From the NCBI RefSeq assembly GCF_000243455.1, contig NZ_AGJL01000051.1, forward strand, positions 1-13,034: 13,034 nucleotides of DNA. Direction: 5' to 3'. Numbering within the stretch: the first letter of the stretch is position 1; each line of letters starts with the position of its first letter. The notes below the pieces were generated by a model, which was given only the letters and a program-made list of their open reading frames with translations, ran no database searches and was not told the DNA's origin. Position numbers and translations under genes: made by a program. Shown piece after piece: positions 6,415 through 13,034 of this stretch. Origin of the DNA: Methanotorris formicicus Mc-S-70. Lineage in GTDB: Archaea > AGJL01 > Methanococci > Methanococcales > Methanococcaceae.

Positions 6415-9400
6415 ATGGTTCACGTTGCATGTTCTGAAAAAATGAGAAAATACTTTGACAATATTATAAATGAAGTTAAAAAAATTTATAAAATAGCGGA
6501 AGAATGTAGGAAGATGGGCTTAGACCCGGTAGATAAGGTTGAAATTCCATTAGCGAGTGATATGGCAGATAGGGTTGAGGGACTGGTTGGCCCAAAAGGT
6601 GTGGCAGAGAGAATTAGGGAATTGGTTAAAGAAATGGGTAAAGAGCCAGCGGCATTGGAAATTGCAAAGGAAATTGTGCAGGGGAAGTTTGGAAAATTTG
6701 ATAGAGAGAAATTGGCAGAGCAGGCAGTGAGAACAGCGTTGGCAGTTTTAACAGAGGGTATTGTTGCTGCTCCGTTGGAAGGAATTGCACAAGTTAAGAT
6801 AAAAAAGAACTCCGATGGAAGTGAATACCTCGCTCTTTATTTTGCAGGACCTATTAGAAGTGCAGGGGGAACTGCACAGGCATTGGCTGTTTTGGTTGGG
6901 GATTATGTTAGGAAGGCAATGGGATTAGACAGATACAAACCAACAGAAGATGAGATAGAGAGGTATTTGGAAGAGGTTGATTTATATCAATCAGAGGTTG
7001 GTAGTTTCCAGTATTCTCCAACCGCAGATGAGATAAGGACTGCAATAAAAAATATTTCAGTTGAGATTACTGGGGAAGCGACGGATGATGTTGAAGTTTC
7101 AGGACATAGGGATTTGCCAAGAGTAGAAACAAACCAATTAAGAGGAGGGGCGTTGTTAGTTTTAGTTGAGGGGGTTTTGTTAAAGGCACCAAAGATATTA
7201 AGGCACGTAGATAAGTTGGGTATTGAGGGATGGGAATGGTTGAAGGACTTAAAAGGAAAAAAAGAAGAGAAAAAAGAAGAGGAAGAAGAGGATGAGTTAA
7301 AAAGTGATGAAAATATTGAAGATGAAGAAGATAAGAAATATGATGACGTTGAAATTGAGGCAAACAAAAAGTTTATAAGCGAGGTTATTGCGGGAAGACC
7401 TGTTTTTGCCCACCCTTCAAAGGTTGGAGGATTTAGATTGAGGTATGGAAGGAGTAGGAATACTGGATTTGCAACAGATGGCTTTCATCCAGCATTGATG
7501 TATTTGGTTGATGAATTCATGGCTGTTGGAACTCAACTAAAGACTGAAAGACCTGGAAAGGCAACATGTGTGGTCCCAGTTGATAGCATAGAACCTCCTA
7601 TAGTGAAACTTAAAGATGGGAGCGTTATTAGGGTAGATTCAATAGAAAAAGCAAAAGATATTAGAGGGGCAGTTGAGGAAATCTTATTCTTAGGGGATAT
7701 TTTAGTTAATTATGGGGACTTTTTAGAGAACAACCATCCATTAATACCAAGTTGTTGGTGTGAGGAGTGGTATGAGAAGATTTTGATAGCAAATAATGTC
7801 CCATATAAGAAGGAATTCATAAAAAATCCAAATCCAATAGAGGCGGTGAAATTTGCCATAGAGACAAAAACTCCTCTCCACCCAAGATATACATACCATT
7901 GGCATGATGTTTCAAAGGAAGATATATTTTTACTTAGAAATTACCTTTTAGAAGGAAAAGAAGAAGAGATTGATGGAAAAAAGGTTTGGGTTGTGGATTT
8001 AGTTAGTGAGGAGCATAAAAAGGCAAAGAGGATTTTGGAGTTAATTGGTTGTTGCCATTTAGTTAGAAATAAGAAGGTTATTATTGGGGAGTATTACCCG
8101 TTGCTATATTCCTTAGGTTATGATGTGGAAAATAAAAAAGATTTGGTTGAAAGTGTTGAGGAATTATTAAATAAGGCAAAAAATAGCATGCATTTCATTA
8201 ATTTACTGTCTCCATTTGAGATTAGGAGAAACACCTATATCTATGTTGGGGCGAGGATGGGAAGACCAGAGAAGGCAGCAGCAAGAAAGATGAAGCCCCC
8301 AGTCAATGGTCTCTTTCCAATAGGTAATGCGGGGGGACAGGTGAGGTTAATAAATAAGGCAGTTGAAGAGGGGAATACTGATGATATTGATGTCTCTTAT
8401 GCAATATGTCCAAAATGCAGGAAAATAAGTTTATACAAAACATGCCCATTCTGTGGGACAAGAGTGGAATTTAAAGGTCCAGAAAGAATAAAAGCCCCAA
8501 TAAAAGATTATTGGTATAAGGCATTGGAGAGATTAAAAATAAACAAGCCTGGAGATGTTAAGTGTATTAAAGGGATGACTTCAAAGGAGAAAATTGTAGA
8601 ACCATTGGAAAAAGCAATTCTAAGGGCAATGAATAATGTATATGTGTTTAAAGATGGGACTACAAGATTTGACTGCACGGATGTTCCAATAACCCATTTC
8701 AAACCAAATGAGGTAAACGTAAGTGTTGAGAAGTTAAAGGAGTTGGGATATGATAAAGACATCCATGGAAATCCTTTGGTTGATGGAGAGCAAGTTGTTG
8801 AATTAAAACCTCAAGATGTAATTTTGCCTGAGAAGTGTGCAGAGTATTTTATAAATGTTGCAAACTTTGTTGATGATTTGTTGGAGAAGTTCTATAAAAA
8901 AGAGAGATTCTATAATGTGAAGAAGAAGGAGGATTTAATTGGACATTTGGTTATAGGAATGGCTCCACACACCTCTGCAGGAATGGTTGGTAGGATTATT
9001 GGTTATTGTAAGGCAAATGTTGGTTATGCTCATCCCTATTTCCACGCATCAAAGAGAAGAAACTGTGACGGCGACGAAGATGCTTTATTCTTGCTTTTAG
9101 ACGCATTTTTGAACTTCTCCAAGAAATTCCTCCCAGATAAAAGAGGGGGGCAGATGGATGCTCCACTTGTATTGACAACCATATTAGACCCAAAGGAGGT
9201 TGATGGGGAAGTTCACAACATGGATACTATGTGGGAATATCCATTGGAGTTTTATGAAAAAACCCTTGAAATGCCATCCCCAAAAGAAGTCAAGGAGTTT
9301 ATGGAAACTGTTGAGGATAGATTAGGAAAGCCAGAGCAATATGAGGGAATTGGCTATACTCACGAAACAGATAGAATAGATAATGGCCCATTAGTTTGTG

Positions 9401-9816
9401 CATATAAAACATTGGGTTCAATGCTTGAGAAAACAGAGGCACAGTTAAGTGTTGCTAAAAGGATTAGGGCAACAGATGAGAGAGATGTTGCTGAGAAGGT
9501 TATCCAATCCCACTTCATTCCTGATTTAATTGGAAATTTAAGGGCATTTTCAAGGCAAGGGGTTAGGTGCAAGTGTGGGGCAAAGTATAGGAGAGTTCCA
9601 TTGAAGGGCGTTTGTACGAAGTGTGGAAGCAACTTGATATTAACCGTTTCAAAAGGTGCAGTGGAGAAGTATATGGAAGTTTCTCAAAAAATGGCAGAGA
9701 AGTATAATGCAAACGACTACATAAAACAAAGATTGACATTGATTAAAGAAGGTATTGATTCATTATTTGAAAATGATAAGAAAAAGCAGGTTAAGATAAG
9801 TGATTTCTTTAAATAA
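6415..9816 (+). CDS. polC: DNA polymerase II (PolD) large subunit DP2, intein-free
   Basis: 1133 aa. The catalytic acidic motif is [20 protein letters not shown]. Zn fingers are [17 protein letters not shown] and [20 protein letters not shown]. The N-terminal domain is conserved ([38 protein letters not shown]). The length matches uninterrupted DP2. Confidence 0.97.
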
Positions 9817-9844
9817 TTTAACTTTATACATCTCTTGCTAAAAG

Positions 9845-9872
9845 TTTTTATTTTTTTATTTAATTTATTTTT
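9845..9872 (+). terminator. Oligo-T tracts downstream of polC (archaeal intrinsic termination signal)
   Basis: The sequence gtttttatttttttatttaatttattttt begins about 30 nt after the polC stop and contains runs of T5, T7 and T5. Confidence 0.4.
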
Positions 9873-10193
9873 AAAGGGTTATTTTTTGATTTTGTAGATT
9901 TTTATCGAATTTCGAAGGTCAGTCTATTTTAAAGAATTTGAGTATTTAGTTTTATGAATTTATTGAGATTTTTGGATTTAGGGAATTGGTAATAATTATT
10001 TTAGATTTTCCCCAATAGGTAAAAAATATTTTAAAATTTAAAAAGATTTTAGATGTTTAATTCGAATTTAAACGATTTTTAGAGAAGTGCGGAGGTATAT
10101 AAATGAACGCTGTTAATACCCCTTCGAAGATCAAGGTCTCGAAAAGGAGTAAGTAGAAAAGTTTATATAGGAAAAAGAGCAAAATTTTATCCT
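9873..10193 (+). promoter_or_regulatory. Leader of CRISPR array B, including a consensus TATA box at 10162-10169
   Basis: This is an AT-rich non-coding stretch upstream of repeat 1. The element agaaaagTTTATATAgg matches the methanogen TATA consensus, and its 3' end lies 24 nt before the first repeat base (10194). A relatively GC-rich module at 10086-10150 contains a second TATA-like element (GGTATATAAA, 10094-10103). Confidence 0.7.
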
Positions 10194-11588
10194 GTTAAAA
10201 TCAGACCCTAGGGGGATGGAAACGAAATAACAGAAGGACAACAGGGATTTGAAAACATTGAGTTAAAATCAGACCCTAGGGGGATGGAAACTCAAGGAAA
10301 TGTTTTAGCAATAAATTCAACAACTGTAAAGTTAAAATCAGACCCTAGGGGGATGGAAACGAGATAAAAGAATGGTTGGATAAATTTAAAATTGAGAGGT
10401 TAAAATCAGACCCTAGGGGGATGGAAACAAAAAAGCCATAAAGCAAGCAATGCAAAAATAAAACCTGTTAAAATCAGACCCTAGGGGGATGGAAACATCT
10501 GACATACACATCACATAACATTTTGTTTTTTTTGACAGTTAAAATCAGACCCTAGGGGGATGGAAACATAAACTTTGAGAAGTATAAGTATATTTGGGTT
10601 AAGGTTGATGGTTAAAATCAGACCCTAGGGGGATGGAAACATCTCTTTCTCTTCGTCTATCTCATAACTATCAAATACTGTTAAAATCAGACCCTAGGGG
10701 GATGGAAACTATAATCTTTTTTAATTAATGTTCCATCTTCAAGGTAGAAATGTTAAAATCAGACCCTAGGGGGATGGAAACGAAATAACAGAAGGACAAC
10801 AGGGATTTGAAAACATTGTTAAAATCAGACCCTAGGGGGATGGAAACTACGAATTTCCCCACCCTTTATGAATTAAAATGCAGGTTAAAATCAGACCCTA
10901 GGGGGATGGAAACGATTAATATGAAGTATTGAGAAGTCACTAAACAGTAAGTTAAAATCAGACCCTAGGGGGATGGAAACATTTTTTATAGCAAATCCGT
11001 TATAATCCCTTTCCAAAGTTAAAATCAGACCCTAGGGGGATGGAAACTCGTACTCTCTCAATAATTTTATAAATTCTCCAACACGTTAAAATCAGACCCT
11101 AGGGGGATGGAAACCAAGTTTTTTTATAAGTTAATTTTATCAGGGCAAAAGTTAAAATCAGACCCTAGGGGGATGGAAACACTCTTTTAAAATCACCATA
11201 TCCATTTAATAAATTTAGTTAAAATCAGACCCTAGGGGGATGGAAACTTTCTAAGTGGGATAGGAACTCTATAATGTGTTAATGTTAAAATCAGACCCTA
11301 GGGGGATGGAAACCTTAAAAACAGGTTTTTTAATCTATTAAAAAGCATACTTGTTAAAATCAGACCCTAGGGGGATGGAAACATCAAATTCAACAAGATA
11401 CTTATTATCCCCAATATATTGTTAAAATCAGACCCTAGGGGGATGGAAACCTCTATCTATCCCATATCCTTGAATTAATTCAAATAGTTAAAATCAGACC
11501 CTAGGGGGATGGAAACTAAATTCATCAGTTGCATCTATGAATGCTTTTGCATCAAATAGTTAAAATCAGACCCTAGGGGGATGGAAAC
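10194..11588 (+). CRISPR. CRISPR array B: 21 identical 30-nt repeats, 20 spacers (36-43 nt)
   Basis: The repeat is GTTAAAATCAGACCCTAGGGGGATGGAAAC. Repeats start at 10194, 10262, 10331, 10399, 10467, 10538, 10611, 10680, 10752, 10818, 10884, 10951, 11018, 11085, 11151, 11218, 11284, 11353, 11421, 11487 and 11559. Orientation follows from the ..GGAAAC 3' end and the upstream leader/TATA. All 21 copies read identically by eye. Confidence 0.97.
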
Positions 11589-11624
11589 ATTCTTTTATTA
11601 AAACTAAAAGAACAGGAAAGAAGA

Positions 11625-11721
11625 GTTATTTTTTTCTGTATGTTTCAGGTATATTTTCAAAATTGTAGATATGGATGGTTTCGGTTCAATGGGTTATTTT
11701 TTCTGTATGTTTCAGGTGTAT
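11625..11721. repeat. Tandem 30/29-bp duplication of nuclease coding sequence around a 38-nt insert (neo-repeat unit)
   Basis: Copy A is 11625-11654, gttatttttttctgtatgtttcaggtatat. Copy B is 11693-11721, gttattttttctgtatgtttcaggtgtat. They differ by one T indel and one A/G mismatch. The unique segment between them is 38 nt (11655-11692). Confidence 0.9.
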
Positions 11722-11947
11722 CAACTCCCAACAACCTAATCTTCCATAATTCTCCATTAACGTTCACATAAACAGTGTCTCCATCCACAACTTTAACGAC
11801 CTTTCCATAATAATGTTCATGAGTATTTACAAAATTAGAGGTATCTGAATTACTGTCATGAAAATTATTATTATGGAGTTCAATACATCCTCCTAAAAAA
11901 ACAAAAATAAGCAACATTAATATTATTGAATATATTTTAGGTTTCAT
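11657..11947 (-). pseudogene. 3'-truncated staphylococcal-nuclease (thermonuclease, SNase) homologue with signal/lipobox-like N-terminus
   Basis: The N-terminus MKPKIYSIILMLLIFVFLGGC looks like a signal peptide with a lipobox-like Cys. It is followed by GKVVKVVDGDTVYVNVNGELWKIRLLGVDTPET, which matches the SNase N-terminal motifs DGDT and R-L-x-G-[IV]-D-T-P-E. Only about 40 residues of the nuclease fold are present. The ORF tail PLNRNHPYLQF* is encoded by the 38-nt insert at 11655-11692. Confidence 0.7.
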
Positions 11948-11965
11948 ACTTCCTCCAAATGGTAT

Positions 11966-12486
11966 TTAGTTTAATCTTTTTAAAGCAATTATTTGGATTG
12001 TTATTAAAGTTAGAATTATTGCCCCTAATGGAATTGGTGCTTTTATTGTATTTCCACCACCGTTATTGTAGTTTCCATTAGATTTTGGTATATAATCAAC
12101 TGTTATTTTAATTGAGTCGATTCTGATAGCCTCTCCTTGTTTATCAATGAATATAGTAACTGAGTTATCACTTAAATATTTTGTAGCATTCTCTCCATCA
12201 ATGGTGATAATGGTAGTTGTGACAATATTATTCCCTACTTCTAATACTCCTACATCTTCACCATCTATCTTAACAATATTATTATCATAATCCACATCAT
12301 AAGCTTTAATTTCTACAGTCATGTTTTGAATATCTATCTCATTTATATCAAAAGTGGAAAATTAAATGTTACATTAATATCCTTATAGCCTACATAGTCA
12401 TTAGGGTCTGTGAAATTCTCCCAAATTTCCCCATATACCACTCCAATAAAGCTCAAAAAAATTAAGGCAATTAATATTTTCTTCAT
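11966..12486 (-). pseudogene. Frameshifted gene for a secreted/surface protein with a C-terminal sorting-signal-like anchor
   Basis: An ATG at 12486, preceded by GGGGGGT, opens MKKILIALIFLSFIGVVYGEIWENFTDPNDYVGYKDINVTFNFPLLI* (stop 12343-12345). This looks like a Sec signal peptide. A second frame is open from 12361 and continues as FSTFDINEIDIQNMTVEIK... to 11966. The two frames overlap across T-runs at 12346-12361, so a 1-nt indel or -1 slip would join them. The C-terminus is NGNYNNGGGNTIKAPIPLGAIILTLITIQIIALKRLN*. Confidence 0.55.
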
Positions 12487-12568
12487 AAATACCCCCCACA
12501 ATATTTACACCCATAATATTATTTTTTTCAAACCATATATTTAACCTTATTTTTGAAATTCAAAATAC

Positions 12569-12767
12569 TTAAATTAATAAAAATATATTAATCGATACTA
12601 TAATTGCTATTAAAACAACAGTCCTTGTTATCTCATTTGAAGCTCCCAAAATATCTCCATTAACTCCACCAAAATGCTTTTTAGCTATTTTAGCCATGCA
12701 TAAACCAGTAATTATTGCTGTTATTATAGCTATTATAACAATTTTCTTCCCAATGTCATCAAATATC
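12569..12767 (-). pseudogene. cobS: 5'-truncated cobS (adenosylcobinamide-GDP ribazoletransferase / cobalamin synthase), last ~65 codons only
   Basis: The sequence [27 protein letters not shown] matches the conserved CobS C-terminal G-G-x-[TN]-G-D-x-L-G-A block followed by a TM helix. CobS is about 240-250 aa, so the N-terminal three quarters, including the D-G-x-A-D region, are missing. The ORF-track start (12781) and its first five codons, MLILT, lie inside a CRISPR repeat. Confidence 0.7.
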
Positions 12768-12866
12768 GTTAAAATCAGCATAGTGGGATGGAAACTCTTT
12801 CAGATGGGATTTTGCACATTGTATTGCTTTTTGTTAAGTTAAAATCAGACCCCTGGAGATGGAAAC
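12768..12866 (+). CRISPR. Orphan mini-array: 2 degenerate array-B-type repeats and 1 spacer (42 nt), no leader
   Basis: The first repeat is 12768-12795, gttaaaatcagcatagtgggatggaaac (28 nt). The second is 12838-12866, gttaaaatcagacccctggagatggaaac (29 nt). The consensus is gttaaaatcagaccctagggggatggaaac. Both keep the gttaaaatcag 5' end and the gatggaaac 3' end. Confidence 0.75.
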
Positions 12867-13034
12867 CTGCTACCACCGTTGACATCATTAATAGTACTGA
12901 TAGTGTGATTTAACAATATTAACTTTAAAACCAAAAAATAGAAATATGTAGTACTTAAATAACTCGTTAAAAAACGGTGCATCTCCTATGCTAGCAGCAC
13001 TTAATAATATACTCACTAATTCTATAAATAGTTT

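Follow-up and report, generated by a model that had tools for sequence, protein, structure and literature searches.

Interruption of CRISPR arrays by insertion sequences (IS) or by miniature inverted-repeat transposable elements (MITEs) is known. In Escherichia coli, off-target integration by Cas1-Cas2 was reported to form neo-CRISPRs (Nivala, Shipman & Church 2018, as cited in 10.1101/148544 and PMC6698737). In vitro, Cas1-Cas2 of Pyrococcus furiosus was found to perform off-target full-site integration at G/C positions 30 bp apart (PMC6698737). Ectopic integration of spacers that is not leader-proximal was also described (McGinn & Marraffini 2016, as summarised in 10.1101/2022.05.19.492656). 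Here we describe the trailer end of a CRISPR array, designated array B, in the archaeon Methanotorris formicicus Mc-S-70. The window, i.e. the whole stretch of DNA analysed, is the entire contig C71 (NZ_AGJL01000051.1; 13,034 bp) of a draft genome of 121 contigs and 1.82 Mb. We lean towards the view that array B is the native array linked to the gene of the DNA polymerase II large subunit (DP2), and that its trailer was split by a captured Methanocaldococcus-type fragment, the edge of which was later used as a pseudo-repeat.

The array and its leader occupy the following positions.

9817..10193, plus strand: leader of array B, 377 nt, 3' of the DP2 gene
10194..11588, plus strand: array B, 21 repeats of 30 nt and 20 spacers of 36-43 nt

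The 30-nt repeat, GTTAAAATCAGACCCTAGGGGGATGGAAAC, is 100% identical in its 21 copies, the trailer-most one included, and two degenerate repeats lie in the same orientation 1179 bp downstream, as the original prediction had described. Because the leader recurs before other arrays of the genome (C79:2935-3295 and C43, at 98-99% identity), the polarity of array B can be read with the leader at the left and the trailer at the right; a 33-nt stretch of C105 is the sole further copy. The arrays of C10 and C79, which carry the same repeat type, both end with a ...GGAAAT variant and then a strongly degenerate last repeat, so that, for this genome, the perfect end of array B is truly anomalous. In another genome of the genus (G001), the DP2 end and the leader align at 85% in one continuous match that reaches the first repeat, and the array that follows contains 8 canonical repeats and then 3-4 degenerate trailer repeats, uninterrupted by nuclease or cobS but with a small palindromic element among the latter repeats. 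This comparison of synteny favours capture into an existing array: since G001 has the same DP2-leader-array arrangement and degenerate trailer and none of these genes, capture in the trailer is the best reading. No spacers common to G001 and the array B region were found.

Immediately after the last canonical repeat, the window contains four segments of repeat or spacer size.

11589..11624, plus strand: S_a, spacer-sized segment of 36 nt, without nuclease homology, occurring once in the genome
11625..11654, plus strand: P1, neo-repeat of 30 nt, a copy of nuclease coding sequence and a direct repeat of 11693-11721
11655..11692, plus strand: S_b, spacer-sized insert of 38 nt between the neo-repeat copies, unique in the genome
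11693..11721, plus strand: P2, native neo-repeat copy of 29 nt, nuclease codons TPETYRKNN, conserved in 7 Methanocaldococcus nuclease genes

These 133 nt (11589-11721) are two further array-register units built on a neo-repeat, and thus more than gene debris. Their start-to-start distances of 66 (11559 to 11625) and 68 (11625 to 11693) fall in the range of array B (66-73), and the length of S_b falls in that of its spacers. While P2 stands in frame with the nuclease and is conserved in 7/7 Methanocaldococcus genes, P1 has no such context. The two copies differ by two changes, namely one indel in a T-run and one A/G, and the duplicated target has the length of a repeat (30 nt for P1 and 29 nt for P2 against 30 nt). 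A G at 11693 and a C at 11722 lie 30 bp apart, and native P starts with GTTA like the true repeat (G1...C30). P has no ATGGAAAC, the 3' handle region of the repeat. The likeness of S_b to the native nuclease sequence does not exceed 2 nt. Tandem duplication or slippage was ruled out as the source of P1 and P2: S_a is unrelated to S_b, each is unique, and the 38 nt that separate the copies recur on neither side. A duplicated target as long as a repeat, enclosing an insert as long as a spacer, is the mark that full-site integration by Cas1-Cas2 leaves at a pseudo-repeat. From this geometry, P1-S_b-P2 looks like the product of one off-target integration in which Cas1-Cas2 would have acted, and the genome does hold an adaptation module, the cas2 of contig C117 matching PF09827 (E = 2.7e-17).

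The DNA between the array and the degenerate repeats had been predicted to consist of damaged minus-strand genes only, with a nuclease cut exactly at the array side. Three gene remnants are indeed present and the 3' end of the nuclease is lost; given that 11589-11721 are array-register units, the nuclease ends 102 nt from the last canonical repeat and not exactly there. What did hold is that both junctions between genes and CRISPR DNA fall at repeat or neo-repeat boundaries, within 0-3 nt.

Protospacers were searched for S_a, S_b, the array spacers and the orphan spacers, and none was found in PLSDB plasmids or INPHARED phages; one PLSDB match was a CRISPR array on a plasmid of Methanocaldococcus sp. 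FS406-22. S_b and the first orphan spacer had no match in exact scans of IMG/VR, and neither the S_a/P junction (exact search) nor gene X (protein search), described below, had a match in metagenome contigs. The possibility that S_a and the start of P1 belong to a conserved native trailer, raised by a resemblance to the trailer of C10, was dropped, as 4.8% of shuffles reach the local alignment score.

The three remnants between P2 and the degenerate repeats are as follows.

11690..11947, minus strand: SNase/EcnA-type secreted nuclease, 5' part (codons 1-86), Methanocaldococcus-like; its open reading frame (ORF) extends to a stop at 11657 within S_b
11966..12501, minus strand: gene X, frameshifted, a secreted protein with a PIP...TM C-terminal tail, in two ORFs of different frames
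12572..12767, minus strand: cobS, 3' part (last ~64 codons), Methanocaldococcus-like; PF02654 166-207/207 and TIGR00317 192-241/241

Nuclease homology begins at 11691 in 7/7 Methanocaldococcus alignments. Intact homologues have 191-195 aa and match PF00565 and NF047969; the fragment covers positions 1-18/107 of the SNase profile only, so the catalytic domain is not full-length. In the same way, the cobS fragment keeps the last ~42-50 profile positions and falls short of a full-length domain. Its homology ends at 12765-12767 and the first orphan repeat begins at 12768, which bears out the predicted 5' truncation of cobS at the orphan-repeat side. The predicted frameshift of the secreted-protein gene was recovered too, as a 2-nt indel relative to a paralogue on C13, with identical sequence there in contigs of three public runs. 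A positional counterpart of gene X, of 166 aa, lies between nuclease and cobS in Methanocaldococcus sp. 16A (G019).

The nuclease and cobS cores show 89-93% DNA identity to Methanocaldococcus genomes, which belong to another family (G028/G022), and 70-78% to the native copies of the same genome and to G001. In protein comparisons, the identity of the cobS fragment is 78-88% with Methanocaldococcus and 52% with the native copy, and that of the nuclease fragment at most 80% (80% with Methanocaldococcus sp. 28A) versus 63%. Maximum-likelihood protein trees place both fragments inside the Methanocaldococcus clade (support 97/96 for the nuclease and 95/100 for cobS), with the native and same-genus copies outside it. 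A whole-genome check for second copies revealed that the native genes are intact on different contigs, the nuclease at C120:1721-2296 (191 aa) and cobS at C99:5378-6154 (258 aa), and in G001 the two genes are ~1.18 Mb apart. On the contrary, nuclease adjoins cobS in Methanocaldococcus (G019, G022, G023, G027, G028 and metagenome-assembled genomes), where the order is shikimate kinase, nuclease, (X), cobS and HAD hydrolase with all genes intact. No CRISPR repeats occur within ~1.5 kb of these intact nuclease-(X)-cobS loci. Judged by sequence comparison, the interval is therefore xenologous DNA of Methanocaldococcus type and not native DNA. The best identity to any sampled genome is 93% over the conserved cores and ~80% elsewhere, and none of these genomes is the donor.

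These results bear on the two histories first proposed for the locus, a single array split by capture of a chromosomal fragment and a native cobS-X-nuclease locus eaten from both sides by two growing arrays. The erosion history would account for the fact that both gene truncations face CRISPR DNA, and it had been favoured on the ground that cobS and a thermonuclease are neighbours in M. jannaschii (presumably MJ1438/MJ1439). The neighbourhood is real in Methanocaldococcus; it marks the type of the donor and no native locus. With xenologous fragments in the trees, native copies that are intact and unlinked here as well as in the sister species (G001), and a DP2-linked array without these genes in the latter, erosion is contradicted and we consider it barely conceivable. 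The capture of a fragment by a single array is the better supported of the two, with the amendment that the captured DNA came from a Methanocaldococcus-type chromosome rather than from that of the host.

A second copy of gene X was observed at C13:152-831 (79% identical), together with the first ~40 nuclease codons and beside an IS end. It resembles the gene X of the contig and that of Methanocaldococcus sp. 16A more closely than the native locus, carries a T-run frameshift of its own and may represent another such capture. On the cobS remnant, a 70-aa ORF (12569-12781, minus strand) takes its start and first codons (MLILT) from the reverse complement of the first orphan repeat, and is most likely chimeric and meaningless.

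Beyond cobS, the window resumes with CRISPR-like DNA.

12768..12795, plus strand: orphan repeat R1, 28 nt, GTTAAAATCAGCATAGTGGGATGGAAAC, a CCATAGTGGG-type repeat minus 2 nt
12796..12837, plus strand: orphan spacer between R1 and R2, 42 nt, unique in the genome and without viral match
12838..12866, plus strand: orphan repeat R2, 29 nt, GTTAAAATCAGACCCCTGGAGATGGAAAC, in array-B orientation

R1 and R2 are 70 nt apart from start to start, and both begin with GTTAAAATCAG and end with ATGGAAAC on the plus strand, in the superfamily and orientation of array B. In the 1,179 nt upstream of them no leader-like DNA was found, the DNA matches there being to nuclease, X and cobS. R1 is 2 edits from the CCATAGTGGG type, which is canonical in two genomes of the recipient's family (G018/G009), 3 from a relict repeat on C35 of the same genome and 4 from array B. 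For R2, the distance is 3 to a Methanocaldococcus type (G028/G027) and again 4 to array B. The CATAGTGGG core of R1 matches relict or terminal repeats of the genus (C35 and C79 of the same genome and the G001 trailer), and a CCAT.GTGGG core is common to the terminal repeat of C79 and a trailer repeat of G001. As this type of core is found in terminal repeats of the genus, R1 has the form that one would expect of an old trailer repeat, and is no proof of a foreign array. It fits with old trailer repeats keeping an earlier form of the repeat.

The orphan repeats might nevertheless have arrived with the fragment, from a donor array that already abutted a truncated cobS; repeat homology would then have joined the right side and illegitimate joining the left. 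The repeat type closest to R2 occurs in G028, which is also the best DNA match for the nuclease and cobS cores, the repeats of Methanococcales are alike enough for short-homology recombination, and an array of this repeat superfamily is present on the Methanocaldococcus plasmid mentioned above. R1 tells otherwise, being 6-7 edits from the sampled Methanocaldococcus types and 2-3 from those of the recipient's family, and the cobS-nuclease loci that were inspected (Methanocaldococcus, Methanococci genomes and metagenome-assembled genomes; L002-L010) have no nearby repeat. Edit distances that differ by 1-2 steps are a weak test in either direction. On balance such a joint arrival is improbable.

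Two further candidates at this end were set aside. The trailer of C79 was dropped as an arbiter between one array and two, since its 71% likeness to the trailer of the G001 DP2-linked array is too low to separate orthology from the general resemblance among trailers. As for microhomology at the right junction, no claim is made, because the agreement of native cobS ATTAAAAGTAGC with the repeat start varies with the donor relative chosen.

The right end of the window is formed by a spacer stub and an IS.

12867..12895, plus strand: spacer stub past R2, 29-30 nt, cut by IS insertion; a 37-nt spacer with 7 nt from C117
12896..13034, plus strand: IS left end with terminal inverted repeat CTGATAGTGTGATT, IS of ~1.15-1.2 kb; the contig ends inside

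The original prediction spoke of R1 and R2 as the only degenerate repeats of their type. Both were found; as the contig stops inside the IS, two is a lower bound. More than 50 copies of the IS, 90-99% identical and with ~350-bp MITE-like derivatives among them, occur in the genome; the element carries two overlapping transposase ORFs of 167 and 226 aa and makes 6-7-bp target duplications (C83, C101, C104). The contig both begins (1-189) and ends (12896-13034) in copies of it. Next to the IS, the contig (...TTAATAGTA|IS) has 9 nt in common with the DNA that adjoins a truncated IS copy on C117 (IS|TTAATAGTA ATATTGT). On C117 this flank is followed at once by the repeat GTTAAAATCAGACCCTGGGGGGATGGAAAC, then by 73 nt and then by cas2; this singleton repeat (C117:32996-33025) is orthologous to the cas2-proximal terminal repeat of G001. 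When the flanks of both contigs are joined, a 37-nt spacer before a third repeat is obtained. Beside cas2 on C117 (L045/L046) lie ORFs with the sizes and order expected for cas1, cas4, cas3, cas5, cas7 and cas8, the Pfam scan having covered Cas2. Over 7.1 kb, this operon shares 85-86% identity with several Methanocaldococcus genomes, and G001 holds only its cas2-cas1-cas4 part, at 92%. To judge from the matching flanks, the orphan pair is probably the upstream part of a trailer of at least 3 repeats that once led into a type I cas operon, and an IS-mediated rearrangement has probably parted the contig from C117 since.

The IS was also observed elsewhere next to CRISPR DNA: four copies lie within 8-80 nt of CRISPR repeats, the other sites being C10:134-150, C35:~224-362 and C117 (33041-33699). 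Copies in two Methanocaldococcus genomes (G022/G024) are 89-91% identical, above the level of housekeeping genes.

The same end of the contig can be explained in another way, in which the leader-proximal part of the DP2-linked array was joined to the trailer of a cas2-linked array, with the foreign fragment trapped between them; the orphan repeats would then never have been those of array B. The singleton of C117, tied to the contig end by the 9-nt flank and orthologous to the G001 repeat adjoining cas2, agrees with such a fusion. In G001, moreover, the cas2-linked array is a locus ~1.1 Mb away from the DP2-linked one and equipped with a leader of its own, and a genome with so many IS copies and with poor synteny to G001 around both arrays offers room for it. 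Yet the DP2- and cas2-linked arrays of G001 carry the same terminal-repeat module (GTTTCAATTAGAGCC[A/T]TAGGGGGATGGAAAT), and therefore the orthology of the C117 repeat cannot separate the two arrays. A fusion also needs a large rearrangement besides the insertion, and the link to C117 is itself deduced from the flanks. We hold it to be unlikely, though by no means far-fetched.

The assembly of the interval was compared with independent sequencing. In an independent 2025 run (X1), a 483-nt contig equals 11562-12044 with zero differences and at single-copy depth, and thus runs from repeat 21 through the four segments S_a to P2 and on into the genes. Other X1 contigs match 12015-12218 and 12189-12695 exactly, the frameshift being covered, and parts of the interval are also present, at 100% identity, in two 2020 runs. 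Depth is ~9-15 over the interval versus ~430-620 for the IS. With this exact bridging, the fragment and its left junction are well established; the evidence for the cobS/R1 junction and for R2 is the present assembly. An artefact, in which reads of a contaminating Methanocaldococcus or of another locus were joined to the array through repeat sequence, might be suspected in a draft of 121 contigs with an IS at both ends of this one, the more so as 12696-12774 and 12823-12895 (right junction and R2) are uncovered by the independent runs and the X1 sequence diverges after 12822. The left junction is nevertheless bridged identically by an independent contig, the junctions are unique sequence and not perfect repeats, and the contamination of the genome is estimated at 0.04%. 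The chance of such an artefact is thus very small. The divergent X1 contig continues with TGGAGTTCCGTCAGATCTTGGAGATGAGAA..., a sequence absent from the assembly that resembles a more degenerate R2.

Taken together, the proposed history, in which the trailer of a native array captured a foreign fragment, would run as follows, the order of events being the one we infer. Array B is native, lies downstream of DP2 and grows at its leader end, and R1 and R2 (12768-12866) would be its old trailer; beyond the IS this trailer would probably include the third repeat just upstream of cas2 on C117. About 1.08 kb of Methanocaldococcus-type chromosome, from the nuclease interior via gene X to the cobS interior, would then have entered the trailer at a spacer/repeat boundary. 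The fragment, which begins with GTTA, would have been placed after S_a, where a repeat was due, and its right end one base before the first base of R1, so that the worn repeats were pushed 1.18 kb from the last perfect one. Later, the adaptation machinery would on one occasion have taken the fragment's first 29-30 nt for a repeat, as a pseudo-repeat, S_b being integrated and P1/P2 duplicated. The captured genes, lacking their ends and redundant with native copies, would have decayed, as the frameshift in X suggests, and in a last step the IS would have landed 29-30 nt past R2.

The right junction, where the insert abuts a repeat at its first base, is of the kind that integrase chemistry yields. 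At the left, entry through end-joining at a break at a repeat edge, helped by the GTTA identity, would be at least as likely as an aberrant integrase reaction; a full-site insertion followed by a GTTA-mediated deletion may be another route. More generally, adaptation chemistry or the repeat-edge breaks that it makes might capture kilobase-sized foreign DNA at a spacer/repeat boundary, the new junction then being treated as a repeat. We regard this general mechanism as quite doubtful.

Several observations weigh against the capture history. The canonical full-site reaction of Cas1-Cas2 leaves a repeat, not a spacer, to the left of the insert. The orphans are not closest to array B among the repeat subfamilies, which had been thought to argue against the split of a single array; R1 is indeed nearer to another type (2 versus 4 edits), a weak failure given margins of 1-2 edits and one that the trailer-type core explains. 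R2, for its part, is marginally nearer to the Methanocaldococcus type, and the orphans could have come with the fragment. The cas2- and DP2-linked arrays are separate loci in G001, and the present arrangement may be a fusion of two arrays instead of the split of one. The right junction and R2 lie in the stretches that the independent runs leave uncovered, and a second search of runs for right-junction reads gave no hit. The X1 contig that follows 12775-12822, through the 3' part of R1 and for 27 nt into the orphan spacer, then diverges, which could reflect strain variation, an unassembled paralogous locus or an error at a contig end. Finally, the searches turned up no donor genome, no pre-insertion allele and no protospacer of S_a or S_b.

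Other features of the arrays and of DP2 were observed. Spacer 1 of array B (10224-10261) equals spacer 9 (10782-10817), as part of the D2 family, which is 100% identical over 68 nt including the repeat. A palindromic element (GAGGCACTGCCGAGCGTAGCGAGGC.GTGCATCC...) lies inside the degenerate trailers of two different G001 arrays (L023:2017-2142 and L050, G001 ~220700-220800), and has a 47-nt match at 96% in the genome of M. formicicus (C115:3848-3894). In the DP2 gene, at ~9065, G001 and many relatives hold ~1.4-2.2 kb of extra DNA, their matches being split at 265/266 of the query 8800-10193. The extra DNA is probably an intein, which M. formicicus lacks, as do G027, G022, G023, G019 and G003.

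The locus provides a probable natural archaeal example of off-target spacer integration making a new 'repeat', a process that is usually experimental or inferred, and shows the CRISPR trailer as a sink for foreign DNA far above spacer size. It is also a record of DNA flow between two genera of vent methanogens, with which the shared IS family (up to 91% identical to a Methanocaldococcus copy) and the cas operon (85-86%) agree. If the general mechanism were true, arrays would be occasional entry points for genes from other genera and birthplaces of new repeats, beyond stores of 30-40-nt spacers. For annotation, a 'perfect' array end and an 'orphan mini-array' close to it can belong to a single array divided by an insertion, and the 96-aa nuclease stub and the 70-aa cobS stub are a warning, as they are debris rather than genes.

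Compared with known systems, the left edge resembles neo-CRISPR formation in that a non-repeat genomic sequence of repeat length (29/30 nt) is duplicated around a 38-nt insert. Unlike the neo-CRISPRs of E. coli, it continues the register of an existing array on the trailer side, within captured foreign coding DNA and not at a free-standing site; it is also a natural archaeal case without over-expressed Cas1-Cas2, in which one integration is visible. With the P. furiosus sites it has in common a 30-bp repeat, a euryarchaeal host and a pseudo-repeat with G at position 1, C at position 30 and the shared GTTA start, whereas the A-rich block of the mid-repeat is not evident in P and the rule comes from another organism in vitro. 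As in ectopic integration, a spacer would have been gained away from the leader end; there, however, true repeats inside an array are used, while the 'repeat' here is foreign coding sequence.

Arrays interrupted by IS or MITEs offer a further parallel, with an IS near R2, IS ends beside repeats on C10, C35 and C117, and a MITE-like element in the G001 trailers. In contrast, transposase, inverted repeats and target duplication are all missing from the 1.08-kb insert, which is a three-gene internal slice from another genus. It shares gene order and strand with the Methanocaldococcus shikimate kinase-nuclease-(X)-cobS-HAD phosphatase locus, the version with X being that of sp. 16A, but contains an internal slice only, which spans nuclease codon 86 to cobS codon ~190. 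Both the interruption of arrays and off-target integration are known, and a kilobase-sized slice of another genus lying at array-register positions is an unusual natural variant of them.

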